Positions 34,488 through 52,163 of a stretch of DNA of 64,000 nt are shown here, piece after piece. The stretch is from Thermoplasmatota archaeon (GTDB lineage: Archaea > Thermoplasmatota > Penumbrarchaeia > Penumbrarchaeales > Penumbrarchaeaceae), in assembly GCA_016928095.1 (NCBI GenBank), contig JAFGLL010000005.1, forward strand, positions 1,102 through 65,101. Reading direction: 5' to 3'. Under the pieces are notes generated by a model. It was not told the origin of the DNA. It made no database searches and saw nothing but the letters and a program-made list of their open reading frames with translations. Numbering within the stretch: the stretch's first letter is position 1; every line of letters begins with the position of its first letter. The position numbers and the translations under genes are program-made.

Positions 34488-37400
34488 TGCCCCACCTCCC
34501 ATTCATCCTCATCATCCGGATCTTCCTCCTCCATCTCCAGGTCCTCGAGGTCCTCCTCATCGTAGAGGTCAAGGTCCTCCTCATCCACCTCTTCCTCTTC
34601 CTCGTCCTCCTCCTCGTCCGATACCGGAATTTCCTCTGCCTCATCGTTCACATCCTCTTCCGTTAGTTCCTCCGGTTCCTCCTCCAGGTCCTGGTCGGTA
34701 TCTTCCACCAGTCCCTCCTCACCAGGTTTTAAAAGGAGCTCTTTCCTTTTCCGTCCTCTCTTCTTTTTACCTGCCTTTTCCATCTTTACCTTGTCCTCGG
34801 CTGTGAAAACGGAACCGCATTTCATGCAGTACTCGTCCGTTAGCCTGACATCGTTTCCGCAGTAAGGGCATACCGGAACAAAGTGGTCAGGTTCGTAAAC
34901 AGCATCCACCAGAGGTTGATCGGGCTCGCGTGGAGATCCCGATCTGCTCCTTTTTATCAGCAGATAGACCAGCAGCCCACCTATGATGAGGCCGATGAGG
35001 AGAGAGACCAGCAGGAGCGGGAACCAGTCACAGAACCTGTCCCATATCGAACCTTTGTTCCCGCCATCTCCCGATGACTCCTCATCCTGCACAACAACAC
35101 TTAGGAGGTACCTTTCGGATTCAACCACATTCTTTCCGTCGGAGACCACCAGCCATATCCTGTGTACACCGGGAGTGTTCAATGTTGCATTGAGGACCCT
35201 TCCGCTGCCCAGGCTGTCCTGCAATGGATAGAACTCGAGGTCGGAATACCAGACATAAGTGAGTTCCAGTCCTTCCGGATCGTATGAGACCGACCCATCA
35301 AGGACAATGGTATCACCCTGCTTGATGGTGTCCACGGCCGGGTAGATCGTGAAGACCGAGATCGGTAGGAGGTCCCTTTCGGTGATCGCAACCTCTATCT
35401 TGACAGGGGCCGAGACCACCCATCCGTTGCCAGCACTGTCTATGACCCGGAACTTTATCTGGTTGAAAGGACCTTCGTCGAAGAGGACCTCGACGGAAGC
35501 TGCGTACGACCCGCCCCCCCGATCCTCCAGATCGTCAACCTTCAGCCACGGGGAATACCCACCAACACCAAATTGGACCCACCCGCTAATCGTCGAATAG
35601 GAGAACTCTACATTGGATGTTTCCAATCCGGACCCCTCCTCCATTATGAAAGCGGTCACCATCACATCTCGGTCCCTGAGCACCGTGGACCCGTTGGGGA
35701 GGAAACCGTTGAATACGGGCATCTCGTCATCTATGTAGATAGAAACGAGATCGCTCTCCACCATATTTCCCGCAATATCGCTCACCATCCACTGGCCGAA
35801 ACCCCAACCACGGTAGGATGGTAGTACATTGACCGAAGGGGAAGCGCTGGCACCGGCTCCGGACATACCCAGATCGGTCCAGGGCAGGGTATAAAGCTCA
35901 TCCCTCGAGCCGATCCGGTAGTTTATGGAATCCAGCAGGAGACCCGATCCGGTATCCTCGATATAACAGCCCAACGAGAAGGATCCCGGACCGACAAGCA
36001 TGCCGTCCTGATCGCCGATATCGATGGTGGGAAGGTTGATGTCCATATTGTAGGAGAATGGAAGAGATATCGAGGTCTGTCCGGCCAGATCGCTCACCTT
36101 CCATTGTATGTAATTCCCGAAACCATTGGCGGAGGGGACCGTCGCATTCAACCGGACTGAACCATCGAAGGTCGTGATCTCCCTGACAGGCATCCAATCC
36201 GATAAGATCCTCACATCCGAGCGGAAGACCCGATACATTGCAGAGGATATGTCGATACCCACACCGTCATCGGAGACCATTATGGAAAAGCCGTTCGTGA
36301 AGTCGTTTATCCATGCGTTATCCCCTGGGAGAGCACCGTAGAACCTGGGATCATTGATATCCAAAAATAAGGTACGGTTCTCGAAAGGACCGATGTTCCC
36401 GGCCCTGTCACAGGCGAAGAACGAGAGGGTATAGGCTCCTCCGGGAAGGAATATCAGATCGCCGGGGACCAGGTAATCCATCTCAGAAATGATGTTCAGA
36501 TCCTGCCCCAAGACCCGCAGGGTGTAGTTCGATATACCGGAACCTCCCTGGTCCGAAACCTCGGTCCAGTAGACCTCTATGAACTGATCATCATCCACGT
36601 CCGAGATGCCGGATTCCTTCCCGTCGGGGAAGATATTGAAAGATGAGACCGGAGGTGGTTTTACCGTATCGACGTTTAGCTTGAAGGTTACATCCTGACT
36701 CCATTCGGCCCCCCTGGGAAGCGTCCCGTTCGTCAGCCTGTATGTCAGGTCCCTTCCATATAACCCCCCACCAGGAACGGCTGTGATATTGTCCAGGAAG
36801 GACCCGTTCATAACTGCCTTACCGATGGTGATACCATCGGGGCGTTTCAGGGATATCTCCACTCTCGTGGCGTTGGGACCGAACGGTACTCCGGATGTCC
36901 CGTGGACCAGTGAGACATTGCAGACATTGAATTCCGAATCCTCCTTCATCCAGCCTTTGACGGGGGATCCTTCGGGGTCAAGTACCTTGAGATATGAGCT
37001 GTCCAGCCCGATCTCCCTATCGACAACGAACTCGTCGTTGAGGTAATTGGAGTGCGATCCGACCGTGCCACTGGTCGAGGTCACTATCAGGTCGGGGTCC
37101 GGAAGGTCCCAGCCGACCTTGACCATGAACACAACGAACCAAGATTGGACCCCATCGGTCCTGCCAGTACTCAGTGAAGGATATAACATGAGCTGGTCCT
37201 CGAAGTCCCCGGTGGCGATGATGGAGAATTCTTTGGTAGATGTGTCGAAGCTGAGCTCGGCGAAACCTGCAGCATCCTGGCTCATCATCTGGACATTTAC
37301 TGTGTCAATATGTTCGTAACCTACCTGGGAGCGTGCCGCTACCTTGAACTGATAAGGACCCTCCCCGGGTGCCAGGATATCCCTTGGTCTATCGAGTGGG

Positions 37401-40400
37401 CCGGCTATCTCCACAGCGCCTGAGATCTCAAGGGGTTGGGTCCTTACCGATAGGCTGAACAGGTCCTTCCCCTCCCAAAGATATACCACGCCAGGGCTGC
37501 TGCCGTCCAGCAAGGGATCGGCACCCGGAGCTCCGATGAACAGGTCATACTTGCCATCACCCGTGATGTCCTTCCCCGCAAGGGCGGACCCTGCCTCATC
37601 ATTGTCCATGAAGCCGGAGATCAGCGGCAGGGAGGAAGTATTGATGGTCAAAGAGGAGGTCAGTAAAGAATGTGGGAACACATGGACACAACCCGTGACG
37701 AGACCGCTTATCGGGTCCTGAAACCCCTTGGCCCCTATGAACACGTCCAGATCTCCATTCCCGTCAATATCCCCCAGGTCCACCGAGGATCCGGTCCTCT
37801 GATTGACCTGATCACCGCATACCGACACATTGAACTCTGTCCTCAGGGAGATCGTTCCCGAGGGCATCCTTGATGCAAGGAACTCCCCCTGAAGTATGAA
37901 TAGGTTCCCTCCTTCCTTGACGGTTCTCTGAAATCCATCTCCCGATGGGCTTCCCAGGAAGAGTTCGGCCTTCCCATCATCATCCATATCCCTGGCCACA
38001 AGAGATGATCCCACCTCATCATAGGGCCAGGCTCCGAATATACGAAGGCTCGGTTCTGTTACAAGATCGATATCCTGGTTCCAGGTACTCCTGCCCCGCA
38101 GGACATAGGTCACTCCCTGTCTGGTGATGGACCCGGCCTTCGACTTGGGTGCCCCTATCGCCAGGTCACCGATCCCGTCCCCATCCATGTCATCGATGGC
38201 CAGGGTCTCCCCGATGAACTCTGTATCCTCCGTTCCGATGATCTTGACATCATAGATATTGCGGACGCTCCTACTTGTCGTTCCGGAGAGGGGTCCGAAC
38301 ATGATATAGACCATTCCGGCATGGTACCTGTCAGCGGTCTCGGCTCCGTGATCGTAGGGAGCGCCGAATGCCAGGTCGTCGATCCCGTCACCGTTCAGGT
38401 CTCCCACTGCAATTGCGGACCCGATCCGTTCGACAAGGTAGCCGGTATAGGTCAGGTTGGTTCTGGTCATCATGTAGGACCTCGTGCCCCCCCAGAAGAT
38501 GTGGACACTTCCAGCGTCGTTGTACAGCCCGCTGATCTGTGCGGAGGGCGCACCGACCACAAGATCGGGATAGCCATCATTGTTGAGGTCTCCTGTTGCC
38601 ATTGCCCAGCCGAAACGGGAAAAGCTCATGGCATCATTGTAGCGAATATCAGTAGAATCCGCTGCGTAATATCTGCCGCTCCAACCAGCTGGCTCACCGA
38701 AGAACATATGCGCGTATCCTGTCCGACCCGGGTCACCTCCGAGATAATCCCCCACTACCAGGTCATCGTTCCCATCCTGGTCGAAGTCCTCCACTACCAT
38801 CGCGGACCCGAAGCAGGAGGCATTGAACTGACCGACGAACGATGCATCGAAAGAACTTGATTGAGATAGGAAGCTTACAAGGCCGGTCCCCACCGTGGGG
38901 CCCAGATCGACGACCTCTTTGGGGGAGGATATCAGGACCTCCTCCTGACCGTCGATCAGCATCTCCGATGCGGCCATGCTCTGGAAAGCACCGCATTCCC
39001 TTGACCTGCCCTTGTATGCTTTTATGGAGTCTTGGAATGTGAGGACGGAAGGGAACGATCCATCAATGTCGAACAGATAGGCCTCTCCGCAGTCGAACTC
39101 AAGGTTGTCCACACCGTCACCTCCCGGTGCGGCTACAAGCAGTTCGTCGTAACCATCACCGTCAATATCCGCCCCGAGGGTCGTCTTCCCCCAAAGATCG
39201 GATGAATCCACTCCGTACGATGTTGTACTGGCATCCGAACGCCCCAGCTGAATGTCGGTTGTGACATTGCGTCCGATGTGGATATCGAACTGTCCGGCCT
39301 TCTTCCTCCAGGTTTCCACACCAGGTGCATAGGGAAGGCCGATCACGAGATCGTCCTCATCCCCGCCCCCAAGGTCCGCGAACGTCAGGGAAGCCTCCTC
39401 CCAACCACCGGATCGGAGGCTGAACTGAACATCTGGATAGAAATCTGTTCCCTGGTGGACCTGGATGTCGGTTCCCAGAGGGACCCCCGGATATGTGTAA
39501 CCCCCGAGCATGATGACGGCATAACCCTCCCCATTGAACCTGTAGCTGAACGAGAGATCGCCAATGGAATCTCCATTGAAATCCCCCACTGCCAGGCCAT
39601 TCCCTATATGAGTGGCATATGCATCGGCGGTCACGACGGCTTCTCCGAAATATCTTACCATGGGTCTGGAAAAGGAAAGATCGACCGTACCAATGCCCGT
39701 TCCAACCCCTTTGATCACCTCGATCTCCCAGGAGCCAAAGCATTCGTTATCATATTCGGATTCGACCGGATCAGCTTTCCCACCGTGCCCCTCGCTCCGT
39801 ATTACCAATTCAGGTACACCATCGTCGTCGAGGTCGCCCGCCTCGAGAGCAGTACCCAGCCGGTCGCCACCTTCCCTGCCGTATACATGACAGAAAAGCC
39901 CCACCCTGTCGATCTGCATCGAAGTACCAAAGGAGACCCGCTGCCTGCCCGTTATCACATAAACCTCTCCCGAGTCCCTCCGGCCGTTCAGGGGACCATC
40001 TGCAAAGGGAGCTCCGATCATCAGATCGTCCCTTCCGTCCAGGTTGAGGTCCTCAACGAGAAGGGAGCTTCCGAACCAATCATCGACATCACCCGCTGTA
40101 ATGACAAGGTCAGCATCGTAGTGCCCGATCAATGTGAAAAGTTCATCCGGTTCACGAGCAAAATATACCATAACCGCACCTCCACCCGCACCAAGTCTTG
40201 ACATCGGGGCCCCGATCACGATGTCACCCCTTCCGTCTCCGTCGAGGTCGCCGGATGCGACCGTTGAACCGAAGGGTACCCCCGATTCTCCCCCCAGTAT
40301 GGACATGGTATCATCCCTGCCAAGGACCACGTATGAATCCTGGTCCAGGGATGCGGGGGTTTCAGACCGTGTTTCGTTCCCCCCGATTACCGTTGGCAGG

Positions 40401-40501
40401 GCTGATGTTATTAGGGTGATCATTATTACAAGAGATGATAGTACGGGACTTCGGGACACGCTCTTCCTCCTCTTGATATTGGTCAGGTGGCATTTGCGCA
40501 T
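34484..40501 (-). CDS. Giant (2005 aa) integrin-alpha-like surface receptor: ~14 FG-GAP repeats (two beta-propellers), Ig-like domains, TM helix, cytoplasmic zinc ribbon and polyacidic tail
   Basis: ATG verified at 40501. FG-GAP/Ca-binding repeats such as GDLDGDGRGDIVIGAP, EDLNLDGRDDLMIGAPF, GDLNNDGYPDLVVGAPS, DDMDGDGIGDLAIGAPKS. TM LLLVSLLIGLIIGGLLVYLLI. Cytoplasmic CPYCGNDVRLTDEYCMKCG followed by ~75 residues that are mostly D/E. Confidence 0.75.
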   Translation of the reverse strand: MRKCHLTNIKRRKSVSRSPVLSSLVIMITLITSALPTVIGGNETRSETPASLDQDSYVVLGRDDTMSILGGESGVPFGSTVASGDLDGDGRGDIVIGAPMSRLGAGGGAVMVYFAREPDELFTLIGHYDADLVITAGDVDDWFGSSLLVEDLNLDGRDDLMIGAPFADGPLNGRRDSGEVYVITGRQRVSFGTSMQIDRVGLFCHVYGREGGDRLGTALEAGDLDDDGVPELVIRSEGHGGKADPVESEYDNECFGSWEIEVIKGVGTGIGTVDLSFSRPMVRYFGEAVVTADAYATHIGNGLAVGDFNGDSIGDLSFSYRFNGEGYAVIMLGGYTYPGVPLGTDIQVHQGTDFYPDVQFSLRSGGWEEASLTFADLGGGDEDDLVIGLPYAPGVETWRKKAGQFDIHIGRNVTTDIQLGRSDASTTSYGVDSSDLWGKTTLGADIDGDGYDELLVAAPGGDGVDNLEFDCGEAYLFDIDGSFPSVLTFQDSIKAYKGRSRECGAFQSMAASEMLIDGQEEVLISSPKEVVDLGPTVGTGLVSFLSQSSSFDASFVGQFNASCFGSAMVVEDFDQDGNDDLVVGDYLGGDPGRTGYAHMFFGEPAGWSGRYYAADSTDIRYNDAMSFSRFGWAMATGDLNNDGYPDLVVGAPSAQISGLYNDAGSVHIFWGGTRSYMMTRTNLTYTGYLVERIGSAIAVGDLNGDGIDDLAFGAPYDHGAETADRYHAGMVYIMFGPLSGTTSRSVRNIYDVKIIGTEDTEFIGETLAIDDMDGDGIGDLAIGAPKSKAGSITRQGVTYVLRGRSTWNQDIDLVTEPSLRIFGAWPYDEVGSSLVARDMDDDGKAELFLGSPSGDGFQRTVKEGGNLFILQGEFLASRMPSGTISLRTEFNVSVCGDQVNQRTGSSVDLGDIDGNGDLDVFIGAKGFQDPISGLVTGCVHVFPHSLLTSSLTINTSSLPLISGFMDNDEAGSALAGKDITGDGKYDLFIGAPGADPLLDGSSPGVVYLWEGKDLFSLSVRTQPLEISGAVEIAGPLDRPRDILAPGEGPYQFKVAARSQVGYEHIDTVNVQMMSQDAAGFAELSFDTSTKEFSIIATGDFEDQLMLYPSLSTGRTDGVQSWFVVFMVKVGWDLPDPDLIVTSTSGTVGSHSNYLNDEFVVDREIGLDSSYLKVLDPEGSPVKGWMKEDSEFNVCNVSLVHGTSGVPFGPNATRVEISLKRPDGITIGKAVMNGSFLDNITAVPGGGLYGRDLTYRLTNGTLPRGAEWSQDVTFKLNVDTVKPPPVSSFNIFPDGKESGISDVDDDQFIEVYWTEVSDQGGSGISNYTLRVLGQDLNIISEMDYLVPGDLIFLPGGAYTLSFFACDRAGNIGPFENRTLFLDINDPRFYGALPGDNAWINDFTNGFSIMVSDDGVGIDISSAMYRVFRSDVRILSDWMPVREITTFDGSVRLNATVPSANGFGNYIQWKVSDLAGQTSISLPFSYNMDINLPTIDIGDQDGMLVGPGSFSLGCYIEDTGSGLLLDSINYRIGSRDELYTLPWTDLGMSGAGASASPSVNVLPSYRGWGFGQWMVSDIAGNMVESDLVSIYIDDEMPVFNGFLPNGSTVLRDRDVMVTAFIMEEGSGLETSNVEFSYSTISGWVQFGVGGYSPWLKVDDLEDRGGGSYAASVEVLFDEGPFNQIKFRVIDSAGNGWVVSAPVKIEVAITERDLLPISVFTIYPAVDTIKQGDTIVLDGSVSYDPEGLELTYVWYSDLEFYPLQDSLGSGRVLNATLNTPGVHRIWLVVSDGKNVVESERYLLSVVVQDEESSGDGGNKGSIWDRFCDWFPLLLVSLLIGLIIGGLLVYLLIKRSRSGSPREPDQPLVDAVYEPDHFVPVCPYCGNDVRLTDEYCMKCGSVFTAEDKVKMEKAGKKKRGRKRKELLLKPGEEGLVEDTDQDLEEEPEELTEEDVNDEAEEIPVSDEEEDEEEEEVDEEDLDLYDEEDLEDLEMEEEDPDDEDEWEVGQ
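34492..34499 (-). promoter_or_regulatory. Shine-Dalgarno GGAGGTGG, 4 nt upstream of the ATG at 34487
   Basis: Placement favours the internal Met as the true start. The same motif recurs before the ATGs at 42546, 24506 and 27732. Confidence 0.5.
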
Positions 40502-40522
40502 GAACTACGATGCCGTCGCCCA

Positions 40523-40533
40523 GATATCTTTAG
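40523..40533 (-). promoter_or_regulatory. TATA-like TAAAGATAT about 22-32 nt upstream of the 2005-aa integrin-like gene ATG (40501)
   Basis: A further TTATAAAAAG at 40555-40565 could serve the divergent DUF2085 gene. Confidence 0.35.
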
Positions 40534-40653
40534 CCCGATTTCAACAATTACAGATTATAAAAAGATTGTGGGGCAGATATGTATTGGCAGAGCGAGGCCA
40601 GAGGTGCCTATCCATAAAGATTTATCTCCTATGGACACCTCTGCATACCGAAA

Positions 40654-41061
40654 ATGAACGAAAATGACAGCGTTCTCAGGTCGAAAATGACCGTTAATGA
40701 CCTCGGTGGTCCGATCGTGGATGACAGGTGTAGATCTCTTAGGATCGCCTGCCACGGTGACCCTGACCGATGTTTCTGGCTAAGAGGGAGACCTTTACCT
40801 CTCTGTTCGCGATGCACGACATTCTACCCCTCTATACTGATCGGTCTGGTCCTGGGGATCCCCCTTGTCATCACTCTGGAGATCTCTGCATTGATCGTCC
40901 TCATATCATTCATCCTGCTCCAGCTCCCGCTTGTTATCGACGGCTTCACGCAGTACAATGGTTGGAGGAGGTCCAACAATGTATTGAGAGCGGTCACCGG
41001 TGTCCTCTCAGGGTTCGGTATCGGTGGTGGAATAACCTACATGATGACAACGATCTTCTGA
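40654..41061 (+). CDS. DUF2085-family membrane protein
   Basis: CFWLRGRPLPLCSRCTTFY matches the DUF2085 signature. Three predicted TM helices. An alternative ATG at 40687 is possible. Confidence 0.6.
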   Translation: MNENDSVLRSKMTVNDLGGPIVDDRCRSLRIACHGDPDRCFWLRGRPLPLCSRCTTFYPSILIGLVLGIPLVITLEISALIVLISFILLQLPLVIDGFTQYNGWRRSNNVLRAVTGVLSGFGIGGGITYMMTTIF

Positions 41062-41062
41062 T

Positions 41063-41463
41063 TCAGTAGAAGCTCTTGCACTTCGGGCAGAACCAGGATT
41101 CCACCCTCTCTTTATAGACCATTCCGGTCCCGCAGACCGGGCAGGATTCACCTTTCTTCTTCTTACCGTCCTGGTCCATGAACATCCTATCGTATGCCGG
41201 CTCTTTCTGTACCCCTGCCTCATCGGGGCCTTTGAAATCAAAATCATCACTGGAGTGGGACGCGATCTTCTGCCCGGCCCCGCATTCGGAACATCTTCCG
41301 GATCCCTTCGAGACCTTCGCGCCGCAGTTCCAGCATTTTATCTTGGAGGCTTTTTTTACAGGTCGTTGAGGTTCGATCTCATCCTCTTCTTCATAAGAGG
41401 ACGAGCGCTTCTTCTTTTTTTTCTTGTGAGGGGGTTCCTCTTCGACCGCTAGAGAGGCTTTAC
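41063..41463 (-). pseudogene. Out-of-frame (+1) continuation of the poly-Glu zinc-ribbon gene, encoding two further zinc ribbons; probable frameshift at an A10 homopolymer
   Basis: Frame is open from 41463 with no ATG before KIKCWNCGAKVSKGSGRCSECG...CPVCGTGMVYKERVESWFCPKCKSFY*. It opens with EEEPPHKKKKKKR, continuing the repeat style of the upstream ORF. A stop lies just upstream in this frame. Confidence 0.45.
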
Positions 41464-42546
41464 CTACCTTCTTTTTTTTTTCCTCTTGGGAATATCTATC
41501 TCCTCATCCTCTTCATGATGAGCCGGATGCTTCTTCTTCATCTTGCGGGGAGGTTCTTCTTCATCATCGTCATAATTGGTCGGACGCTTCTTCTTCTTCA
41601 TCTTGCGGGGAGGTTCTTCTTCTTCCTCTTCCTCCTCGGGTTCTTCCCTCAGAACACCTTTACGACCGCAATCATCGCATATGAATTTCAATGGTCTCCT
41701 TCTGGACCTTATCTTGATGATATTTCCGCATTTACACCGGATCTTGAGGACTTCTTCCTCCTCGTCTTCTTCCTCCTCTTCGTCCTCTTCCTCTTCCTCC
41801 TCTTCCTCTTCTTCCTCTTCGTCCTCTTCCTCTTCCTCCTCCTCGTCCTCTTCCTCTTCCTCCTCCTCGTCCTCTTCCTCCTCCTCGTCCTCTTCTTCCT
41901 CCTCGTCCTCTTCCTCTTCTTCCTCCTCGTCCTCTTCCTCTTCCTCCTCCTCGTCCTCTTCCTCTTCTTCCTCCTCGTCCTCTTCCTCTTCCTCCTCCTC
42001 GTCCTCTTCCTCTTCTTCCTCCTCTTCTTCCTCTTCGTATCGATCTCTGGACTTCTTCTTTCCAGTTCCCACTACGAAGATCTCCTCCTCATCATCCTCG
42101 AGGCTTATAGGACGGTAGCTGGACCTTACAGCTCCCTCATCTCCATCGCTGGTGATGTCAAAGCCTCTCTTTTTTACTGGCTTCTTCCCCTTCTCCTCAC
42201 CTTTTGGTTTCTTTTTTGAGACAGTGGTCTCTTCTTCCAGAACCACCTTCTTCTTGAGAGGCTTGCCCTCGTCCTTGTGCTTCTTTTTAAGAGGCTTTTC
42301 CCCGTCAGTATGCTTCTTCTTGAGAGGCTTGCCTTCGTCAGCATGCTTCTTCTTCAAAGGCTTGCCCTCGTCCTTGTGCTTCTTTTTAAGAGGCTTCTTC
42401 TCGGGAACCCCGTACTTTTCCTCGTATTTTTTAGCGAACACCCTGGCCTTCTTGGCAAGGTCCCCCTTGGGGACCCAACCACATTCTTGACACCTGTCAA
42501 AGGGATAATCCATTTTAGCCTTGCATTTCTTGCACGGGACCTTCAT
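41464..42546 (-). CDS. Cytoplasmic multi-zinc-ribbon protein with five KPLKKKH(K/A/T)DEG repeats and a ~94-residue poly-Glu/Asp tract
   Basis: ATG at 42546 (MKVPCKKCK) preceded by GAGGTGGG. The track ORF starts at ATG 42573. Zinc ribbons CKKC...CQECG and CKCG...CDDCG. E/D tract encoded at 41758-42039. C-terminal EEEPPRKMKKK repeats. The ORF stops just after an A10 run. Confidence 0.6.
   Translation of the reverse strand: MKVPCKKCKAKMDYPFDRCQECGWVPKGDLAKKARVFAKKYEEKYGVPEKKPLKKKHKDEGKPLKKKHADEGKPLKKKHTDGEKPLKKKHKDEGKPLKKKVVLEEETTVSKKKPKGEEKGKKPVKKRGFDITSDGDEGAVRSSYRPISLEDDEEEIFVVGTGKKKSRDRYEEEEEEEEEEEDEEEEEEEDEEEEEEEDEEEEEEEDEEEEEEEDEEEEEDEEEEEDEEEEEEEDEEEEEEEDEEEEEEEEEEEEDEEEEEDEEEEVLKIRCKCGNIIKIRSRRRPLKFICDDCGRKGVLREEPEEEEEEEEPPRKMKKKKRPTNYDDDEEEPPRKMKKKHPAHHEEDEEIDIPKRKKKRR
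41758..42039 (-). repeat. Imperfect GAG/GAA/GAC trinucleotide array (~94 codons) encoding poly-Glu/Asp
   Basis: The plus strand reads (CTC/TTC/GTC)n with a periodic 7E+D or 5E+D pattern. Visible directly in the sequence at 41.76-42.04 kb. Confidence 0.9.
42250..42399 (-). repeat. Five tandem 33-nt repeats encoding KPLKKKH(K/A/T)DEG
   Basis: The plus strand shows five iterations of gaggcttgccctcgtccttgtgcttctttttaa-like units. Confidence 0.85.
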
Positions 42547-42715
42547 CCATCCCACCTCTTGTATCGATGACATACATCATGCATACAAAATAAAAAGGTT
42601 TCCCACTTTTTCAATGATTCTTCATCACCTATGTATAGGAACCCGCAGATATCATCATTTGCCTCCGATGGAGGCTGACCCGCGGTCTCCACGGAGGGTG
42701 GACGGTCCAAGACTG

Positions 42716-45700
42716 TCAGTCCGCCATCATTTCTCTATCCTCTTCCGAGGCTCCCGCTCCATCAGGGTCAATAAGGTCCTCCGGTCCGGGATGGCTGATC
42801 TCTTCCTCCCTGTGATCCTCCATAGGATGATCGCCGGATGGACCCTCATCCAATGAGCCCTCCTCGATCTCGTCCTCGGGAAGGTCCATTCCGCATTCAG
42901 GGCAGTAGGACATGCTTTCCTCGATGGACGCACTGCAGAAAGGGCACTCCTTACGGGTCATTTTCTCCTGCTCGGACCATGTTGGTCCATCGTTCGTCTT
43001 CTCCGGTTCGGCAGCTTCTTCCGATCCCTGCGTCATATCATCTTTTCTCTTGTGGAACAGGACGACCGCCAAGATCACCGCCCCCAGCAATATGATGATG
43101 ACGACCACTATCAATATAACAAGCCAGAGTCCAGAACTCGTTCCATCCACCTCTGGAACACTTTCAGGATCAAGGGGGTCCGAACCCTTCTCGTATTCCT
43201 CCAGGTTCGTATAACCGTCCACATCCATATCACCCTGGGCATCTGATGCCCATTTCGGGTTCATTCCCCAACCTACTTCTATACCGTCCGGAATGCCGTC
43301 ATCGTCCGTATCGGGATTGTCCGGTTCCGTCCCCAACTGGTATTCCTGGAGGTTTGTCAGTCCGTCCCTGTCCTGGTCTTCGGCCGCATCCGTATTGTCT
43401 GCGGGGGACAGGAAATCGTAGCCGATCTCGTAGATGTCCGGTATGCCGTCACCATCCCCGTCGATATCCTCGACCGAGATGGTCCTGAACGTGATCACGA
43501 GATCATTTGCGGAATTCCCGCTAAGGTCCCTGATGGGTCCAAGGGTGAAGGTATAGTTCGTTCCATCCTGGAGTGAATCCTCAGGGTGATAAGTGATGGT
43601 CCTGGTCTCCACGTTCAGTTCGAAATCAAGTATCACGGAGGAATACCCGCCCTCGGGGACCAAGGATGCCAGAAGAGCATCCCATTCTATGAGCTCGGAG
43701 AACCTTATGGAGATAGAGGGTCCGAGTTCGATGTTGACCGCTCCATCCTCCGGTTCGACCGATATGACACCCGGTGCCTGAGTGTCCGGGATGGCCACGA
43801 TGAGATCATACTCCAGGGTCTCCCAGTTCCCCGCGATATCGTAACCTGTTACCGTCAAAGAATAGGAACCGACATCAAGGTCTATCGATAGGTCCGTTCC
43901 CTGGACCTCTTCATAAGTGTAGTTGTTCGAAATGGTCCAGGTGACATGATCGACCCCGCTCTCATCGGTTATATTCAGCTCAAGGTCGACGTTCTGTCCC
44001 TCGTAGGACATGATCGTCCCTCCGTCGACCCCCTCTATGAACATTTCAGGGTCCTTCAGGTCCACCCATATGTTCGATGAGTTAAATGGACCAGCATTCA
44101 GGGATGGGTCAATGGACCTGAACTGGGCAGTGTGTTTTCCTTCGTTGAGGAAGAAATAGTACTGGAATACACCCCCATAGGTGGTCCATCTCTCTATTAT
44201 CCCTTCGGGGTCCGTGAAATCCTTTCCGTCCAGCTTGATCTCGATCACTGTCCTGTTCTCTCCTGTGACATTGACCTTGAACCCAACGAGAGATGTGTTG
44301 AAGAACAAAGAGCCAGGTATATACTGTACTGCATCCAAGGGGAAGAACTCAAGCCTTGGTGCGACAGGGGGTGTAATATCAAGGGTTGTAAATGCTACGG
44401 TCGAAGATGGAGGGCCGAAGTTCGGGGTCTCGGCATCATCGACCGCAACGATATAGGCTTCTATCTCGGTTTCGGAGGGCAGGCCGGTGATCTTCTCGGT
44501 CACTGACATCCAGTTGTCGATATAGATCGAGAGGTTCCATGAACTATCGACGGCTTCCAAGAATATCCAGAAGCCGATAATATCATCACTTGGACTTGGG
44601 GTCCATTTCAGCTGCACCCAATCCCCTCCGAAACCCTCTACAGTGAAATTCCTGGGAGGTTGGGGTGGAATGATATCGAGGGTCTTTCCAAAGACCGGAC
44701 CGAAGAACCCCAACGTATTTGCATAATAATCCTCTGATCGGATGCTGATATTCCAGAGAGTATCATGCTCCAGGCCATCGATGATGAAACTCCTTGCCTT
44801 GTCCTTGGCATTCACGGACTTGGTCTCGGAAATATGAGCGCCATCTCTCCTGTAATCTATTCTGAACCATTGTAGATCTCCCGGAGGGTTCGGAAGGTCC
44901 CATAGAACTTCTATCGTTGTCCCGGTCCTATTGCCGACGGTCAGGTTTTCCACTTTTGGAGGTGGTGTGAAATCCAGGTACCAGGTCATATTGAAGTTAT
45001 CTCCAATAAAAAGACCCGGATCCTTGAGGTCGTTCCGCCAGTATGCTGCTGACGCGGACCGCTCCCACCTCATTGTGATCTCGACCTTGACAGACGATGT
45101 GGATCCCATATGCTTGTACTGATTGACAGCAATAGGAGGCATTATTCCATCCGATCCGGTCACCAGACCGGTCAATGTGGGATCGAAGACCGTCCATTCA
45201 TCAAGCTCGGTCGGATATTTTTTACCATATACCTTGACCGATACAAGATCCACACCCTTTTGTTCGTAATCATCGATCGCCCTTAAGAAGAACCATTTAC
45301 CCTCGTGCACTTCTGCAGAACTCTGAGCCGTGACGTTTCTTGGAGCGTTGAATGTGCAGTTGACGACCCAGCCATAGCCACCCGTCATACCCCTGAAACC
45401 TGCCGAATTCCCCATGAGGGTCGAATTGTAGACATATGCTCTTGACCCCATGCCCATCGTCTTTACCCCTCCAGCAGACCCCATCATCAGTATATGGTCC
45501 AGGTATCCGTATCCTCCCTGAGTGATGTTGATACCATCGTAAAAGAAGGATGTATGAGATCTATCGAAAATTATTGGAGATGCTTCTGTTCCGGCGGCCA
45601 GAATGGCACCTTCCACCCAGATCCCGACCGACGGAGGGAGTTGGACCGTAACTCCGGGATCGATCCTCAGGGTCCTGCCCACAGGTACTGACACGTTCCC

Positions 45701-45898
45701 CTCGAGCAATACGGGGGAGTCTGCAATTCCCCATCGGGTGTCACCGGTAAGAGGCCCCTCCGGGACCACGATCCCCGACACTATCTCGGGAACCATGAAC
45801 GTGAAGATGAGGGTCAGTGACGATAGAAGCAGTAAGGATATCACTGCCATGGTCGACAAGTTACGAGAACTGGCGGTGTAATTTATATCGAGGCCCAT
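42716..45898 (-). CDS. Large (1060 aa) surface protein with thrombospondin type-3-like Ca-binding repeats, TM helix, cytoplasmic zinc ribbon and acidic tail
   Basis: ATG verified at 45898 with GGAGAG upstream. N-terminal anchor [23 protein letters not shown]3-like DxDxDGxxD repeats ([38 protein letters not shown]). [27 protein letters not shown]. Cytoplasmic [19 protein letters not shown] followed by a D/E-rich tail. Confidence 0.65.
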
Positions 45899-46006
45899 GA
45901 TCGCTACTCTCCTGATATTTCACTCCAACTTGGGTTGTGTGGTAAGGGTGGGATCTTGTAATAAACCTTTACTCTGAGATCAAAAAGAATAACAAAGGTG
46001 CAAACC

Positions 46007-46207
46007 TTATATCAGACTCCAGACCCAACCCTTCTTTGCAGGGTCCATCCGGCTCTTGATGATACCTTTGGTCTTCATGAGCATCAGCGTCCTTACCGCC
46101 CCGTCGGGACAGGCCTCTCCTCTCCTCTTGATCTCCCTCTCAAGCTCCGAGGTGGACATCTCCCCTTGCTCCCTAAGGATCTTCAATATCTTCTCTTCTT
46201 CCGTCAT
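46007..46207 (-). CDS. Small winged-helix DNA-binding protein (putative transcriptional regulator)
   Basis: 66 aa. EEKILKILREQGEMSTSELEREI is HTH-like, followed by a beta-hairpin wing KGIIKSRMDPAKKGWVWSL. ATGA overlap with the upstream SNF transporter gene. Confidence 0.45.
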   Translation of the reverse strand: MTEEEKILKILREQGEMSTSELEREIKRRGEACPDGAVRTLMLMKTKGIIKSRMDPAKKGWVWSLI

Positions 46208-47829
46208 GTACCTACCTCCTGGGTCATGGGTCCCTCACTATCCATCGCTTCCCTGATCTCCAATACCTCGACCAGAGGGCCTTCAAGGATATCTATATCG
46301 TCATCTATGGACCGTCCCATGTCCATTCCCTCATCTATCATCCTCGGTCCCACCCTTTTACTTATGAAGATCAGGACCGCCAGTGATACCCCCCACTGGA
46401 GCAGGAGGATGCCGAGACCTAACACACCTCCCAACCACCACTCCTCCGAAGGAGCGGTCAAGGTCTGGATCAGGAACCAACCGGACATCACCGCGAGCTC
46501 GATGGGTATGATGAACTTGAAAAGGACATCGAACCATCTTCCTACCTTGATATCATCATATCTGCTGTTGATCATATTGTTCCTGAACCGGGTTATCCCG
46601 TACTTCACGACAAGGTAGTATATGAACGCACCAGACACAATAAGACCAAGACCCCATACGAAGTCCTGATTGTCAAGGAACACGGGTAGGGGGGTCCCGC
46701 TTACCGGGAGAATTATCAGAGCCGAGGGAAGGCCCAATATCAACATACCCACTGTGAGAAGGCGGATCGCCTTCTTCCTGTCCCATCCCGCATCGACGAA
46801 GTTCTTCACGGCATTCTCATATGTCGCTATCATTGAGGTCAGCGCTGCAAAGGCCATCGCCATGAAGAAAAACACTGCGATAATGGGGCCTCCCGCCATC
46901 TCGCCGAAAAGGCTTGGGAGATAGATGAACGTAAGGCCTGAACCCCCTTCCTCAACGGCAGCTTCTGCCATTGCAGGTGATGGGCTGACGGCGAAAACCG
47001 TTGCAAATATCATGATCCCCGCAACCAATGCAATGGTGGTATCCCCCAGACCTGTCAGGAAGGTATTGAGGTTCGTGTCGCTCTTCCTCTTCGTATAAGC
47101 CCCATAGGTTATGGCCATGCCCATACCGGCGCTGCAAGACCAGGCCGATTGGGCCAGTGCAGATATCCAGGTCCTTGCATTGAGCAGAGACCCCATATGC
47201 GGCGTGAATAGATATGCGATCCCATCAAACGCTCCCGGGAGGAGAAGCGCCCTGATCATTCCAATTATAAGAAGTACGAAAAGTGCCGGTATGAGGACCT
47301 TGTTCACTCTCTCAACGCCCTTTTCAACACCCCGGTATACGATGATGACGGTTATTGCAATGGCCAACACCTGAAAGAACACGACAAGGAGCGGGGAGCC
47401 GAGGAAACCCTCCCAAGAATCCCTGGCACCCTGTGCGCTGTGGAACGAGACCGATCCGGTGACGGAACCCAATGCATACCGAAGGGTCCAGCCCATCACG
47501 ACAGCGTAGTAGAAACCGATGGCTGTGGATATCCATGTAAGCCAGGCACCCATCCAGGTCTTCTTTATCCCCAGGAACTGTGCGAACGTCCCCATTGTCC
47601 CCCTTCGAGACTTCTTGCCGAGATTGAACTCCACAAGCAGTATCGGTATAGACCAGATGAAGAGAAAGATGACATAGGGGATCATGAAGGACCCGCCTCC
47701 GTTGTTGGCCACCTCCTTGGGGAACCTCCAGATATTACCGGTCCCGATGGCTGCACCAAGTGCGGCCATGAGAAGACCCCACCGGTTCGTGAACAGCCCT
47801 CCGACCTTGGAAGCCGTTTCAATCACCAC
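46204..47829 (-). CDS. Sodium-dependent transporter, SNF/NSS (SLC6) family
   Basis: TM1 signature WGLLMAALGAAIGTGNIWRFP. 11-12 TM helices. GTG start at 47829. Overlaps the M14 peptidase gene by 11 nt and the downstream HTH gene by 4 nt. Confidence 0.85.
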   Translation of the reverse strand: MVIETASKVGGLFTNRWGLLMAALGAAIGTGNIWRFPKEVANNGGGSFMIPYVIFLFIWSIPILLVEFNLGKKSRRGTMGTFAQFLGIKKTWMGAWLTWISTAIGFYYAVVMGWTLRYALGSVTGSVSFHSAQGARDSWEGFLGSPLLVVFFQVLAIAITVIIVYRGVEKGVERVNKVLIPALFVLLIIGMIRALLLPGAFDGIAYLFTPHMGSLLNARTWISALAQSAWSCSAGMGMAITYGAYTKRKSDTNLNTFLTGLGDTTIALVAGIMIFATVFAVSPSPAMAEAAVEEGGSGLTFIYLPSLFGEMAGGPIIAVFFFMAMAFAALTSMIATYENAVKNFVDAGWDRKKAIRLLTVGMLILGLPSALIILPVSGTPLPVFLDNQDFVWGLGLIVSGAFIYYLVVKYGITRFRNNMINSRYDDIKVGRWFDVLFKFIIPIELAVMSGWFLIQTLTAPSEEWWLGGVLGLGILLLQWGVSLAVLIFISKRVGPRMIDEGMDMGRSIDDDIDILEGPLVEVLEIREAMDSEGPMTQEVGT

Positions 47830-49549
47830 CTTTCTTGGACCTCAGGGCTATCGTTATTCCACCGACGAAACCACCCCAGATCGTTCCAAGGGTGAAGAGC
47901 ATCACGAACATCGTCGAGACCCCGAACACGAGATACCTTACCCTCTCACCATCCACCCTCAGGATATGGAACTGGTTCGGGGCGAATGTGGGTTCCGTGA
48001 CCGACCTTCCCTCTGAATCCACCAACTTGAAATAGAACCTGAGCTCGCTGTCCTTTGAGACCCTGAGGACCTCCGCTGTCAGACCGCCCTCATCGTCCTT
48101 CACGATGGGTGCGGTCATCCATTCGCCTTCTCCCCAGCAATAATATACCCTCGTACGGTCAAGGTTGATGGGATACGGGTATCCATGGTCCATGTATGTG
48201 AGTTTCAGCCGGATACCGTCACGTGTCTGCTCCCAGCTGGTCGAATTCTCATCGAACCTTATGAAACTCTCATAAGGGTTCGCGGCGGCATGGCAGAGAT
48301 AGAGGGTCGGATCCAGATTGATCCTGCAGTTGGTCATGATCTCTTCAGCAGGGATGGTATGACGGTCCCCTATCTCGAACGTGTATCCGAAGGTCCCATA
48401 CTGGGAGTAGAACCAATCGTTGAACTCGCCTGTAACGGGGTAGAGGTCGTATCCCTGCATGGGGGCATAACCGTTCATCTCCGCCATCCTGGTCCCGAGC
48501 TGCTCCATTACCTCTGCGTCCCTCGTCGGCTCCGGGGTATTGCCCCAGGGCCAGAGGACAAGCTCGGAATACGAGTGATAGGTGATCGCGACCGGATAAT
48601 GATGACTGTCGCCCAGGGCCCTTATTGCTATGGTCTCAGCTGATGAGAAACCCCCTGCCGGATCCTCGTCGACCTTTCCATCGCCATCATTATCGATCCC
48701 ATCCCAAGGGTCCTCATCTACTCCTTCGTCCGGCCCTAACGGTATGTATCCAGGACGTACATCTATCGGGATGATGGCATCTCCGTCATCATCGACATTG
48801 TCCGGTGGCCCTCTGTAAGAAGACCCGCTTGTAACCAAAACGTTCGACCCTCCAGACTCATGCCATGCCCACCCATAGTTCCTGTTGATGTCGACACCAT
48901 ACGATAGAGGGACCACATCCGGGGAGAGCAGACCACCTGGGCCGAACTCGATCAGATAATTGGGCTCCCTGTTCTTCCTCCAATTCCTATCGACCTCATG
49001 CGAATACTGAACCCCGTCGGGGTTCACCATCGGGATAAAATAGACCTCACGGTTGTCAACGATGTACGTGGATATGCTTCCATTCACCCCTCCACCTCCA
49101 TAATTGTTCACAAGGAACGAAAGGACATAGAGAGGGACCTCATATGATATCCATTCGTTACCATGATGGGCTCCAACAAGCAGGACGTTCTCCTCCACGG
49201 TAACTCCCCCATCATCCTCCAGGCCGGGATTGTCGGATAGCTTCAGGCACCATAGATCCCTGCCCTCATGGGTCTTCCCCATGGACCAGAGCTTGACTAT
49301 ATCGGATCTGGTCTGTTCCAGGAATTGCAGATACTCTGTCATGGTATTGTAATCGAAATATGATGTGAAGTTGGACTCCTCCATGACACCAGAGGGTGCC
49401 AGGATGGACAATGAGGTCCCGGCAGAACCTGTGCCGGTCCATTCCGCTTCCCTTGGCCCGCCCGATAGGAACAGAAGCGCGGAGCTTAGTAAAAGCACCG
49501 TGAACAGAATGGTCCTGGACAGGGGCCCTGAGGTGTTGGAGCCCTGCAT
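47819..49549 (-). CDS. Secreted and membrane-anchored M14-family zinc carboxypeptidase
   Basis: ATG verified at 49549. Signal peptide TILFTVLLLSSALLFL. Zinc-binding HHGNEW (HxxE). Ca-binding-like insert DGIDNDGDGKVDED. C-terminal TM MFVMLFTLGTIWGGFVGGITIAL. TATA-like TTATAT lies 24-29 nt upstream. Confidence 0.75.
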   Translation of the reverse strand: MQGSNTSGPLSRTILFTVLLLSSALLFLSGGPREAEWTGTGSAGTSLSILAPSGVMEESNFTSYFDYNTMTEYLQFLEQTRSDIVKLWSMGKTHEGRDLWCLKLSDNPGLEDDGGVTVEENVLLVGAHHGNEWISYEVPLYVLSFLVNNYGGGGVNGSISTYIVDNREVYFIPMVNPDGVQYSHEVDRNWRKNREPNYLIEFGPGGLLSPDVVPLSYGVDINRNYGWAWHESGGSNVLVTSGSSYRGPPDNVDDDGDAIIPIDVRPGYIPLGPDEGVDEDPWDGIDNDGDGKVDEDPAGGFSSAETIAIRALGDSHHYPVAITYHSYSELVLWPWGNTPEPTRDAEVMEQLGTRMAEMNGYAPMQGYDLYPVTGEFNDWFYSQYGTFGYTFEIGDRHTIPAEEIMTNCRINLDPTLYLCHAAANPYESFIRFDENSTSWEQTRDGIRLKLTYMDHGYPYPINLDRTRVYYCWGEGEWMTAPIVKDDEGGLTAEVLRVSKDSELRFYFKLVDSEGRSVTEPTFAPNQFHILRVDGERVRYLVFGVSTMFVMLFTLGTIWGGFVGGITIALRSKKGGD

Positions 49550-49572
49550 CGTGCTGGTAAGGTAACCTGGTG

Positions 49573-49578
49573 TTATAT
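49573..49578 (-). promoter_or_regulatory. TATA-like element (ATATAA on the minus strand) 24-29 nt upstream of the M14 carboxypeptidase ATG
   Basis: Only AT-rich hexamer at the appropriate distance on the minus strand. Confidence 0.4.
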
Positions 49579-49768
49579 CGTTTTCTATTCATCCAGAGGA
49601 ACGTTCAGGCATGGCTGGTTACGAGGGGCTACAAGAGGCCTTGGCGTGCCATGTTTCAGCGGGTCACGGGGCCGTCCGATGTTACTTTTAAAAAGGGGGA
49701 TCGGTCTCCACAGGAAATCCCCCCCAACCTTGAAATAATACCAATATGATAGGTCCTTATCCCCGCGG

Positions 49769-49779
49769 ATAAAATAAAT
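49769..49779 (+). promoter_or_regulatory. TATA box ATAAAATAAAT 17-27 nt upstream of the sensor-like gene ATG at 49796
   Basis: Sits in the 246-nt divergent intergenic region. The transcript is probably leaderless. Confidence 0.45.
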
Positions 49780-49795
49780 TCTGGGGTAATTCCGT

Positions 49796-51310
49796 ATGGG
49801 TGAATGGATACGCAAACTCTTCTCGGATAGCGTTAGCCAGTCCGCGAAGCAAAAAGGGGAAGACGCCTCCAACGAACAGCTAAGAGCTACCCGTGGTTCT
49901 TTCCGGATCGATAGATCGGGTTCGACTAGGAACGGGGAAACCGAGCTTGAGGATATCTTGGATATACGCTCCGCCATCTCCGGTCTCCTGTCCTCCCTTC
50001 TCGATGTCGAGGATATGCCCACCCTGACCGAGGTACTTTCCAGAGAACTCCCCGCCATAATACCTTTCGATATCGGTACCTTGAGATGGAACTCTCCCGA
50101 TAGCGGGTCCGAAGACCCTCTTTACCAGGTGGAGGACGATTTTCCGGAGAGCGCGGAGTTCATCGCCCTGGGAAGCATTCTTGAAGGTGCCAGCGACGTC
50201 CGGGTCCAAGGCCCTGAAGGGTTCCAGTGCGATGGAACATGGAGCGGGCATATGGATGGGATCTGTCGTGCCAGGACAATGGCGGGTGAACCTCTCCTTG
50301 TCCGTATGCACTCCGGACTCATCATTCCCCTTAACAGCAGGGACGGGTCGATCGGTGTGATACTGCTGTTCTCGACCCGGGAGGGAGCGATGGACGGAAA
50401 GGCCGATGATGAAGAAATGAGGCCGATCTGGAATGGGATCGGTTCAACACTTCGCCGGATCCTCGGGTCCATCGATGCTATGGACGAACTGCAACGGACC
50501 AGAGAGCTCCTCAACAGCAGCGATGAGCTTCTCGTCCTCTGGAAAGAGGCAGGGAACCTGTGGGAAATAGATTGCAACTCCAGAGCCGAGAGCTTTATCC
50601 AGAAGGACCGGATAACCCCCGAGATGATGGAGGGGCCTTTCTTCGCTCCACCCGGCAAGGAGTGGGACCGTGCCATGTCCGCATGGAGAAAGGCTTTCGA
50701 GGAGGGGGGAACGGACCTGGTGGAACTGAAACTCGTTTCGGTGAAAGGTGAGAGGATCCCGCATCTGTGCATCTTCTCCCCATATCAGAAGGATGACGAT
50801 GTCCTTGGTGTGAGGATGACCGGCATCCCCTCGGATTTCCTTATGAGGTCCATGGCCATGGTCAGGTCGGAGGAACCTCAAGTTCACCACGAACGGGTGG
50901 ACCTGTTCTCCCTCATCGGGGAAGAGATATGTTCACTCGGTGAGGATAGATACGGGATGGAAGTCCAAATGGAACCTCCCACCGGACCTCTGGAGATCAG
51001 CGGTCATCCAATGCTAAGGGTAGCTTTCAGGTCTCTCCTCGAGAGGGCCAGGGAGCTCTCTTTGCCCGGGCATGCGGTCTCGGTAGGGATCTCGACCGAT
51101 ATCCGGGGGATCAAGGTCTCGATCAAGTGCAAGGAGATACCCACGAGAGAAGAAGTCCACGAGGACGCTTCAGGGGGTGGGTCAGGGACCAAAGAGAAGA
51201 TACAATATGCAAGATGCATCATCGAGCTTCACGGTGGAAGCCTTGATAACGGAAGCAAGGGAGGAGAGGGCTCGATGTTCAGGGTCATGCTCCCATGGTC
51301 AACGCACTGA
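49796..51310 (+). CDS. Sensor-like protein with GAF/PAS-type regions and C-terminal HATPase_c-like domain (histidine-kinase-like ATPase)
   Basis: C-terminal GGGSGTKEKIQYARCIIELHGGSLDNGSKGGEGSMFRVMLPW resembles the G2 box/ATP lid of HATPase_c. No clear H-box. TATA ATAAAATAAAT lies 17-27 nt before the ATG. Confidence 0.4.
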   Translation: MGEWIRKLFSDSVSQSAKQKGEDASNEQLRATRGSFRIDRSGSTRNGETELEDILDIRSAISGLLSSLLDVEDMPTLTEVLSRELPAIIPFDIGTLRWNSPDSGSEDPLYQVEDDFPESAEFIALGSILEGASDVRVQGPEGFQCDGTWSGHMDGICRARTMAGEPLLVRMHSGLIIPLNSRDGSIGVILLFSTREGAMDGKADDEEMRPIWNGIGSTLRRILGSIDAMDELQRTRELLNSSDELLVLWKEAGNLWEIDCNSRAESFIQKDRITPEMMEGPFFAPPGKEWDRAMSAWRKAFEEGGTDLVELKLVSVKGERIPHLCIFSPYQKDDDVLGVRMTGIPSDFLMRSMAMVRSEEPQVHHERVDLFSLIGEEICSLGEDRYGMEVQMEPPTGPLEISGHPMLRVAFRSLLERARELSLPGHAVSVGISTDIRGIKVSIKCKEIPTREEVHEDASGGGSGTKEKIQYARCIIELHGGSLDNGSKGGEGSMFRVMLPWSTH

Positions 51311-52129: not shown

Positions 52130-52163
52130 GGGACCGAAATGACGACCTGAATGAAAACCTTAT

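Follow-up and report, generated by a model that had tools for sequence, protein, structure and literature searches.

We analysed a 64,000-nt stretch of Thermoplasmatota DNA (the window, in whose coordinates positions are given; GC content 53%), focusing on the C-terminal tail of a 1060-aa surface protein encoded on its minus strand. The window encodes eight surface proteins anchored by a transmembrane (TM) helix. According to hydropathy and motif scans, two of the eight carry a zinc ribbon behind the anchor: the 1060-aa protein and a 2005-aa FG-GAP protein. An initial annotation had placed a zinc ribbon with an acidic cytoplasmic tail at 42719..43054, and this was borne out by open reading frame (ORF), TM and motif scans: the interval comprises exactly residues 949-1060, i.e. 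everything past the C-terminal TM helix. The zinc ribbon behind the membrane anchor is genuine, conserved and under selection; its domain class is already known and promiscuous, and the tail does not constitute a new system. Features of the two genes, and of a third ribbon gene located between them, are listed in Table 1.

Table 1. Features of the ribbon-carrying genes (window coordinates)
Feature	Position	Strand	Basis or content
1060-aa type-I surface protein gene	42716..45898	minus	ORF; N-terminal signal/anchor, fn3, Big_5, TSP3-like D-rich region, C-terminal TM, cytoplasmic tail
C-terminal TM helix, residues 924-948	43055..43129	minus	hydropathy scan; AlphaFold2 helix with pLDDT ~90
Juxtamembrane HKRK and linker, residues 949-984	42947..43054	minus	proximal part variable, distal P972-E984 conserved
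C4 zinc ribbon CPFC-x10-CPECG, residues 985-1003	42890..42946	minus	motif scan
Conserved acidic post-ribbon segment, residues 1004-1018 (15 aa)	42845..42889	minus	column identity 0.56 over 1004-1020
Distal acidic tail, residues 1019-1060	42719..42844	minus	variable among orthologues, column identity 0.29
2005-aa FG-GAP protein gene	34484..40501	minus	ORF
FG-GAP cytoplasmic tail, residues 1850-2005	34487..34954	minus	linker, CPYC-x10-CMKCG, K-rich patch, poly-acidic tail, conserved C-terminal end
FG-GAP ribbon	34814..34870	minus	CPYCGNDVRLTDEYCMKCG
Soluble K/E-rich zinc-ribbon gene (ORF1), 369 aa	41464..42573	minus	ORF; two ribbons; stop codon 41464..41466

Layout of the two ribbon-carrying proteins

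The 1060-aa protein is 100% identical to an NCBI protein from a Candidatus Thermoplasmatota metagenome-assembled genome (MAG). Pfam search identifies fn3 and Big_5 domains in it, and TSP3_bac scores 22.8 bits, under the cut-off of 25. Both ribbon-carrying proteins possess a hydrophobic N-terminal signal/anchor segment and lysine or arginine residues behind the C-terminal TM helix (residues 1826-1849 in the FG-GAP protein), which fits an N-out, C-in topology. A site of four cysteines makes sense only in the reducing cytoplasm. Taken together, the anchor segment, the basic residues and the Cys4 site indicate that the tails are probably cytoplasmic.

The ribbon had been described as lying at the same distance from the TM helix in both proteins. 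The distances are similar but not equal, 36 aa in the 1060-aa protein and 28 aa in the FG-GAP protein. The acidic character of what follows the ribbon was confirmed for both: the post-ribbon region of the 1060-aa protein (57 aa) contains 40% aspartate plus glutamate (D+E) and that of the FG-GAP protein (109 aa, K-rich patch included) 50%, against 15% across the window proteins, in which cysteine accounts for 0.8%. The two proteins end with ..REMMAD and ..DEDEWEVGQ (34487..34510), respectively.

The ectodomains had been regarded as unrelated. Their overall architectures indeed differ, with a single common piece, a 38-aa Ig-like motif (..D.AGN.GPF......D..DP, E=1e-4) found at residues 583-620 of the 1060-aa protein and 1351-1388 of the 2005-aa protein. 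The ectodomains are therefore not wholly unrelated as regards the building blocks of their repeats.

The tail domain as a generic C4 zinc ribbon

In both tails the top Pfam match is PF13240 (Zn_Ribbon_1); PF13248, DZR and further zinc-ribbon families rank below it. With a PF13240 cut-off of 25 bits, the FG-GAP ribbon scores 28.7 bits as an isolated segment and 22.6 bits within the whole protein; the ribbon of the 1060-aa protein stays just below the cut-off even in isolation (24.5 bits). All seven members of the 1060-aa family match this model (best E=1.3e-6), as do all six of the FG-GAP family. The CxxC knuckles lie about 10 residues apart, and the four cysteines are invariant in the orthologue sets of both families as well as in the merged alignment. 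NCBIfam yielded no match reaching cut-off, only weak ones to TcaA and "ribbon_DG_selen". Judging from sequence and model, the domain is a C4 zinc ribbon of the generic PF13240/PF13248 class, approximately 20-30 residues in length, and presumably binds zinc.

It had been noted that the two ribbons share a CPxC-x10-CPxCG pattern. The x10 spacing is indeed common to both, and the CPxCG part is not, as the second knuckle of the FG-GAP ribbon reads CMKCG. Among 914 ribbons collected from profile hits, 889 have x10 spacing, 673 begin with CP and 847 have glycine after the second knuckle. Since x10 spacing and CPxCG are thus the norm of the ribbon class, the shared spacing carries little information.

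To describe conservation along the tails, mean pairwise column identity was determined from family alignments (Table 2). Orthologues of the 1060-aa protein (P0002-P0006, P0008 and the truncated P0007, which lacks the tail) share 51-69% identity. In both families the ribbon is the best-conserved stretch of the tail, at or above the level of the ectodomain.

Table 2. Mean pairwise column identity along the two protein families
Region	1060-aa family	FG-GAP family
Ectodomain	0.62	0.55
TM helix	0.34	0.44
Proximal linker (residues 949-970 of the 1060-aa protein)	0.26	0.25
Pre-ribbon (residues 971-984)	0.65	0.44
Ribbon	0.75	0.73
Post-ribbon	0.56	0.64
Distal tail	0.29	0.39

Conservation extends to sequences adjoining the ribbon. 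The tail core of the 1060-aa family can be written as PTWSEQEE..KKECPFCxASLEExMxYCPECGMxLPEDExEEGSMDE, in which the flanks PTWSEQEE..KE and GMxLPEDExEEGSMDE are conserved. In the FG-GAP family the flanks are conserved too and are different ones, YEPDYFVP and GTVFSAEDKxKMEK. That each family keeps the ribbon together with its own flanks suggests that the ribbon serves specific contacts or a binding surface and is more than a mere site for metal.

Structure of the TM helix and tail of the 1060-aa protein was modelled with AlphaFold2 (AF2). The model consists of a confident TM helix, a linker with predicted local distance difference test (pLDDT) score below 50 in its variable part, ribbon beta-strands with pLDDT 73-77, and an acidic tail predicted to be disordered, whose pLDDT stays under 50 between residue 1016 and residue 1026, where the model ends. 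Residues 1027-1060, beyond the modelled part, are probably disordered as well, given their low conservation. A ribbon-only model built from a 60-sequence alignment has mean pLDDT 82 (about 90 in the core) and displays beta-hairpins with strands at positions 7-9 and 16-18. Its nearest PDB folds in Foldseek search are without exception C4 zinc ribbons or NZF fingers, with root-mean-square deviation (rmsd) of 1.1-1.4 Å over 26-28 residues. They comprise Ran-bound fingers of Nup153 and RanBP2, ubiquitin-bound NZF fingers of TRABID and HOIL-1L, and ribbons of RadD, ArnA and archaeal ribosomal proteins. Sequence search of the PDB for relatives of the ribbon returned nothing significant (E at least 0.014, to bL32, eL43, Rpo12, LysW and designed fingers).

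Similarity between the two tails

The two tails were aligned with statistical controls. Similarity beyond composition was found in the ribbon and neither in the linker nor in the acidic tail. BLASTP alignment of the tails is confined to the 19 ribbon residues, seven of which are identical (E=3e-4). The ribbon has a Smith-Waterman score of 54, compared with 19.8±4.4 for shuffled sequence, and none of 2000 shuffles reaches the real score. The linker (15 against 17.0±3.4) and the post-ribbon acidic tail (43 against 44.7±6.5) are no more similar than shuffled sequences. Alignment of the two family profiles by hhalign covers 29 columns around the ribbon, with probability 94% and E=1.4e-7. We also considered that DNA had recently been duplicated, or exchanged by gene conversion, from one tail to the other, and rejected this, as blastn-short retrieved only GAA/GAG words. 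According to these alignments, the two tails share a small ribbon domain and not a larger cassette, and the FG-GAP copy is an independently diverged ribbon in the same position.

The FG-GAP tail has a further conserved element at its very end. The sequence (D/E)(D/E)W(E/G)V-x-x is kept at the C-terminus of all eight members of this family that were seen (P0017-19, P0042, P0086, P0105 and those at loci L002 and L004). An acidic-W motif common to surface-protein tails was considered and dropped outside the FG-GAP family; the tryptophan in the tail of the C25-peptidase protein of the window is not conserved in its relatives.

Recurrence of the layout on other surface proteins

A profile covering TM helix, linker and ribbon of both families (A5) was searched against 1.84 billion representative proteins, which gave 6371 hits at E<=1e-3. 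Layouts were classified for the best 149 of these 6371 hits. Soluble, TM-free multi-ribbon proteins account for 95 of them, and in 23 the ribbon is N-terminal to the TM helix. Type-I layout, i.e. ectodomain, last TM helix and then one or more ribbons, was observed in 15, and in all of these the ribbon follows the TM helix at a distance of 23-49 aa. Ten of the 15 fall within the two ectodomain families (including the distant P0056, P0070 and P0145).

The others, which come from metagenomes, have unrelated ectodomains. Acidic tails are found in P0046 (PKD, three ribbons, 41% D+E), P0116 (NosD/beta-helix and Big domains, 35% D+E) and P0152 (five PKD domains, six ribbons, 34% D+E). Tails of P0109 (PKD/CARDB), P0130 and P0033 are not acidic. 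Many of the carriers hold 3-10 ribbons. These sequences indicate that generic ribbons behind the anchor of large surface proteins are a recurring architecture, in which the tail is often but not always acidic.

Full-length matches in a single stretch were restricted to the two ectodomain families in this search, and either tail type was seen with the ectodomain of its own family only. The tail of the 1060-aa family was also sought on other ectodomains by a contig scan, which found it in four Thermoplasmatota genomes, always on the same orthologue, and only generic ribbons elsewhere. Acidic tails, in turn, occur without a ribbon. The six other TM-anchored surface proteins of the window (576-1212 aa) have tails of 7-45 aa devoid of ribbons, four of which are net acidic, and the acidic ribbon-less tail of the C25-peptidase protein is kept in its relatives. 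Acidity is thus not tied to the ribbon. The proposal of a modular cytoplasmic cassette therefore stands in so far as the ribbon-behind-TM layout recurs on unrelated ectodomains; ribbon and acidic tail do not form one homologous unit.

Comparison with known systems

The PF13240/PF13248/PF12773 (DZR) class resembles both tails in having two CxxC knuckles about 10 residues apart, glycine after the knuckles and a length of about 23 residues. Members of the class often adjoin TM segments and often form tandem arrays. Here, in contrast, the ribbon occurs once, inside the acidic disordered tail with which a giant type-I surface protein ends on the cytoplasmic side.

Closest in layout are ribbons of two bacterial membrane proteins. 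The cytosolic zinc ribbon of Myxococcus GltJ binds its own linker and MglB, and that of Caulobacter ZitP binds PopZ (PMC11135422). Both are small C4 ribbons on the cytoplasmic side of a membrane protein, adjoining a flexible linker, and can be likened to the tail of the 1060-aa protein by layout only. They differ in that the ribbon is N-terminal, the orientation type-II and the partners known, whereas the ribbon described here is C-terminal and archaeal. Zinc-ribbon fusions to heliorhodopsins of Thermoplasmatales have been read as partner-recruiting modules (bioRxiv 10.1101/2021.02.01.429150). Literature search for C-terminal cytoplasmic zinc ribbons of archaeal surface proteins turned up no paper on them.

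The closest solved folds, NZF/RanBP2 fingers of Nup153, RanBP2, TRABID and HOIL-1L (rmsd 1.1-1.4 Å over 26-27 residues), are compact binders of Ran or ubiquitin. They are eukaryotic and their Foldseek E-values are 0.14 or more. The likeness, seen in the model, probably reflects a shared minimal zinc-ribbon scaffold and not family membership.

CPxCG-type C4 ribbons are also abundant in archaea. Haloarchaeal CdpC is a two-ribbon membrane anchor of FtsZ1 with a long disordered linker, and distant multi-ribbon relatives of it have been reported in Thermoplasmatota (bioRxiv 10.64898/2026.07.16.738847). Haloarchaeal CPxCG zinc-finger proteins, CdpC included, are small soluble or amphipathic-helix proteins and not tails of type-I surface proteins. 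The resemblance to CdpC, based on layout alone, fits the soluble K/E-rich multi-ribbon gene better than the tail.

The carrier protein LysW combines a zinc ribbon with an acidic flexible tail ending EDWGE, and the FG-GAP tail similarly contains a ribbon, an acidic tail and ..(D/E)W(E/G)V... Unlike LysW, it has two to three residues behind this motif, lacks the terminal glutamate and is membrane-tethered rather than a free carrier, and the tail of the 1060-aa protein is entirely without the W motif. A LysW-like carrier was rejected, as PF21344 gives E=0.038 on the 2005-aa ribbon and no match on the 1060-aa ribbon, and the C-termini read ..DEWEVGQ and ..REMMAD.

Possible role of the ribbon tail

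The reading we favour, with a probability of roughly 0.6, is that the tail is the cytoplasmic part of a bitopic adhesin-like protein in which a generic C4 ribbon, set in a disordered acidic tail, has a docking role. The protein would be oriented N-out, C-in, with the ribbon about 36 residues inside its C-terminal TM anchor. The zinc-stabilised knob and its family-specific flanks would together offer a surface at which a cytoplasmic partner could dock or the tails could associate with one another. In this way the surface protein could be coupled or positioned from inside the cell, and the low-complexity acidic tail would serve as a flexible charged spacer. The layout would be one instance of a widespread arrangement in which a large surface protein has one or more such ribbons on the inner side of its TM anchor. 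We infer the docking function, and whatever partner it may involve, by analogy with the ribbons of GltJ and ZitP and with the structurally similar NZF/RanBP2 fingers that bind Ran or ubiquitin.

Several observations weigh against this reading. PF13240 scores on the 1060-aa protein are below the cut-off of 25, both for the whole protein (18.4 bits) and for the isolated segment (24.5 bits). The ribbon model gives no significant Foldseek E-value (0.14 or more), owing to the very small size of the domain. The ribbon is not needed for anchoring as such, as six neighbours in the window do without it. Finally, the neighbourhood was ruled out as a sign that the tails and the soluble multi-ribbon gene are functionally connected: the entire region is conserved in order (see below), so adjacency of the ribbon tails to this gene is uninformative.

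A zinc domain that folds quickly just inside the membrane, followed by a strongly charged tail, might instead hold the C-terminus on the cytoplasmic side and so secure the stop-transfer anchor of very large secreted ectodomains, with no need for a specific partner. Such a plug would be in keeping with the ribbon position in the 15 type-I hits (among the best 149 of 6371), each of which has it 23-49 residues past its last TM helix, and with tail length in the window, where the cytoplasmic tail exceeds 100 aa only in the two ribbon carriers. Yet equally large neighbours (991-1212 aa) are anchored with ribbon-less tails of 9-45 aa, conserved family-specific flanks are not expected of a purely physical plug, and carriers with 3-10 ribbons far exceed what it would require; we consider this explanation unlikely. 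The cysteine pattern might even be a functionless product of low-complexity sequence, given that both tails are compositionally biased and the Pfam score of the 1060-aa protein is below cut-off. Conservation in the alignments has already refuted this, since the cysteines are invariant and no tail segment is better conserved than the ribbon among orthologues sharing 51-69% identity; moreover, the ribbon alignment beat all 2000 shuffles, and the probability left to chance is negligible.

TM helix, linker, ribbon and acidic tail do follow in the same order in both proteins and the ribbons are significantly alike, as would be expected if ribbon and acidic tail were one homologous module copied or moved between both genes, or among many genes of the genome. 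But linker and acidic tail are similar only at the shuffled level, the BLASTP match spans 19 residues, DNA similarity is lacking and the conserved flanks are distinct in each family. The 1060-aa-family tail was found by the contig scan in four Thermoplasmatota genomes, always on one orthologue, full-length single-stretch matches among 1.84 billion proteins belong to the two ectodomain families, and acidic tails also occur without a ribbon. This explanation is largely refuted and very improbable. Still harder to credit is a role in metal handling, in which the cysteine knuckles and the many carboxylates of the tail would act at the membrane as a sensor or buffer of Zn2+ or other cations. It would account for four invariant cysteines next to 40-50% D+E, but one C4 site of structural type makes a poor buffer, the acidic sequence further out lacks conservation, and no metal-transport or metal-regulator gene adjoins except for a 66-aa ORF with a weak ArsR-like match (E=0.043).

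An extension of the docking role can be imagined as inside-out, integrin-like coupling in wall-less Thermoplasmatota. The FG-GAP beta-propeller and TSP3/Ig adhesins would be tied through their ribbons to the soluble, recoded K/E-rich multi-zinc-ribbon protein of CdpC-like layout encoded between them, and perhaps onward to FtsZ or another cytoskeletal element. We regard this as a long shot. In practical terms, a conserved ribbon directly behind the anchor offers a concrete, mutable handle for seeking cytoplasmic partners, through which archaea lacking a rigid wall may link large surface adhesins and enzymes with the cell interior, and such tails are best labelled in annotation as cytoplasmic PF13240-type zinc ribbons.

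Genomic neighbourhood

Gene order is kept over approximately 25-30 kb (window ~30987..56829) across Thermoplasmatota MAGs, at 40-70% protein identity and in every relative examined (L002, L004, L005, L009, L019/L020). The conserved order begins with the C25 protein, FrhB, a beta-lactamase fold protein, a histidine kinase, an M14 peptidase and an SNF transporter, and continues with the 66-aa ORF, the 1060-aa protein, the K/E-rich multi-ribbon gene, DUF2085 (opposite strand), the FG-GAP protein and a 1171-aa protein. The 64-kb window has five CxxC-x(10 or 14)-CxxC motifs, and all of them fall within one 8-kb stretch on the minus strand (34814..42946): two belong to the tails of the surface proteins, the other three to the soluble K/E-rich gene with the -1 extension described below. 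The Cys-rich DUF2085 gene (40654..41061, plus strand) lies between the ribbon-carrying genes.

Directly upstream of the 1060-aa gene is the 66-aa ORF (46007..46207, minus strand), which starts with MTEEEKILKILREQGEMSTSELERE. It is kept at the same position in the five relative loci with gene calls there (66-74 aa; L002, L003, L004, L005, L019). From its weak match to ArsR/SmtB-like helix-turn-helix proteins, it may be a small winged-helix regulator.

A putative frameshift site in the soluble ribbon gene

The K/E-rich gene ends in a peculiar way. Its stop codon comes 5 nt after a run of ten adenines (A10; 41472..41481), and the -1 frame is open through this run and for about 134 codons further, to 41063 (whole span 41063..42573, minus strand). 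This continuation (ORF2) extends the same EEPP(R/H)KKKK repeat and adds two further ribbons. In the window, ORF2 has no ATG, GTG or TTG before its last 40 codons.

The same arrangement, an A10-11 run with a stop codon within 2-8 nt and a -1 ORF, was found in seven loci: the window and L004 (~14251-14265), L002 (~14491-14506), L009 (~8255-8275), L017 (~588-604), L018 (~165-180) and L019 (~12520-12540), slip-site positions being given in brackets. Across these loci ORF2 adds one or two zinc ribbons and ends with ..CPKCKSFY; in the window, L004 and L009 it lacks a start codon ahead of the ribbons. Gene callers omit ORF2 or begin it at an internal codon (82-115 aa). Its occurrence in seven loci suggests that the junction is a site of -1 ribosomal frameshifting or of transcriptional slippage in an archaeon. 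Recoding of this kind is seldom on record for Archaea; according to a review, the Saccharolobus alpha-L-fucosidase is the only archaeal case in which -1 frameshifting has been demonstrated unequivocally (PMC8037382). The putative fused product of ORF1 and ORF2 would consist of a ribbon, a disordered K/E region and further ribbons, which recalls the layout of CdpC by description only. The A10/-1 junction may be a more valuable lead than the ribbon tail.

The K/E-rich gene also holds a fourth, irregular ribbon (CKCG..CDDCG) and a very long poly-Glu tract with periodic aspartate (EEEEEEED repeats; 41600..42120, minus strand). Length of this tract varies widely among relatives (ORF1 of 307-394 aa). 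On the plus strand it yields spurious poly-Ser and poly-Leu/Phe ORFs (41515..42219 and 41576..42118).

Short C-termini of other surface proteins

Three other TM-anchored surface proteins, encoded at 1771..4746 (plus strand), 8196..11834 (plus) and 11838..14594 (minus), have very short cytoplasmic tails that all end with -EE (..DGPVLEE, ..DHDIPEE and ..SEDWVEE). This shared end may represent a C-terminal short linear motif.

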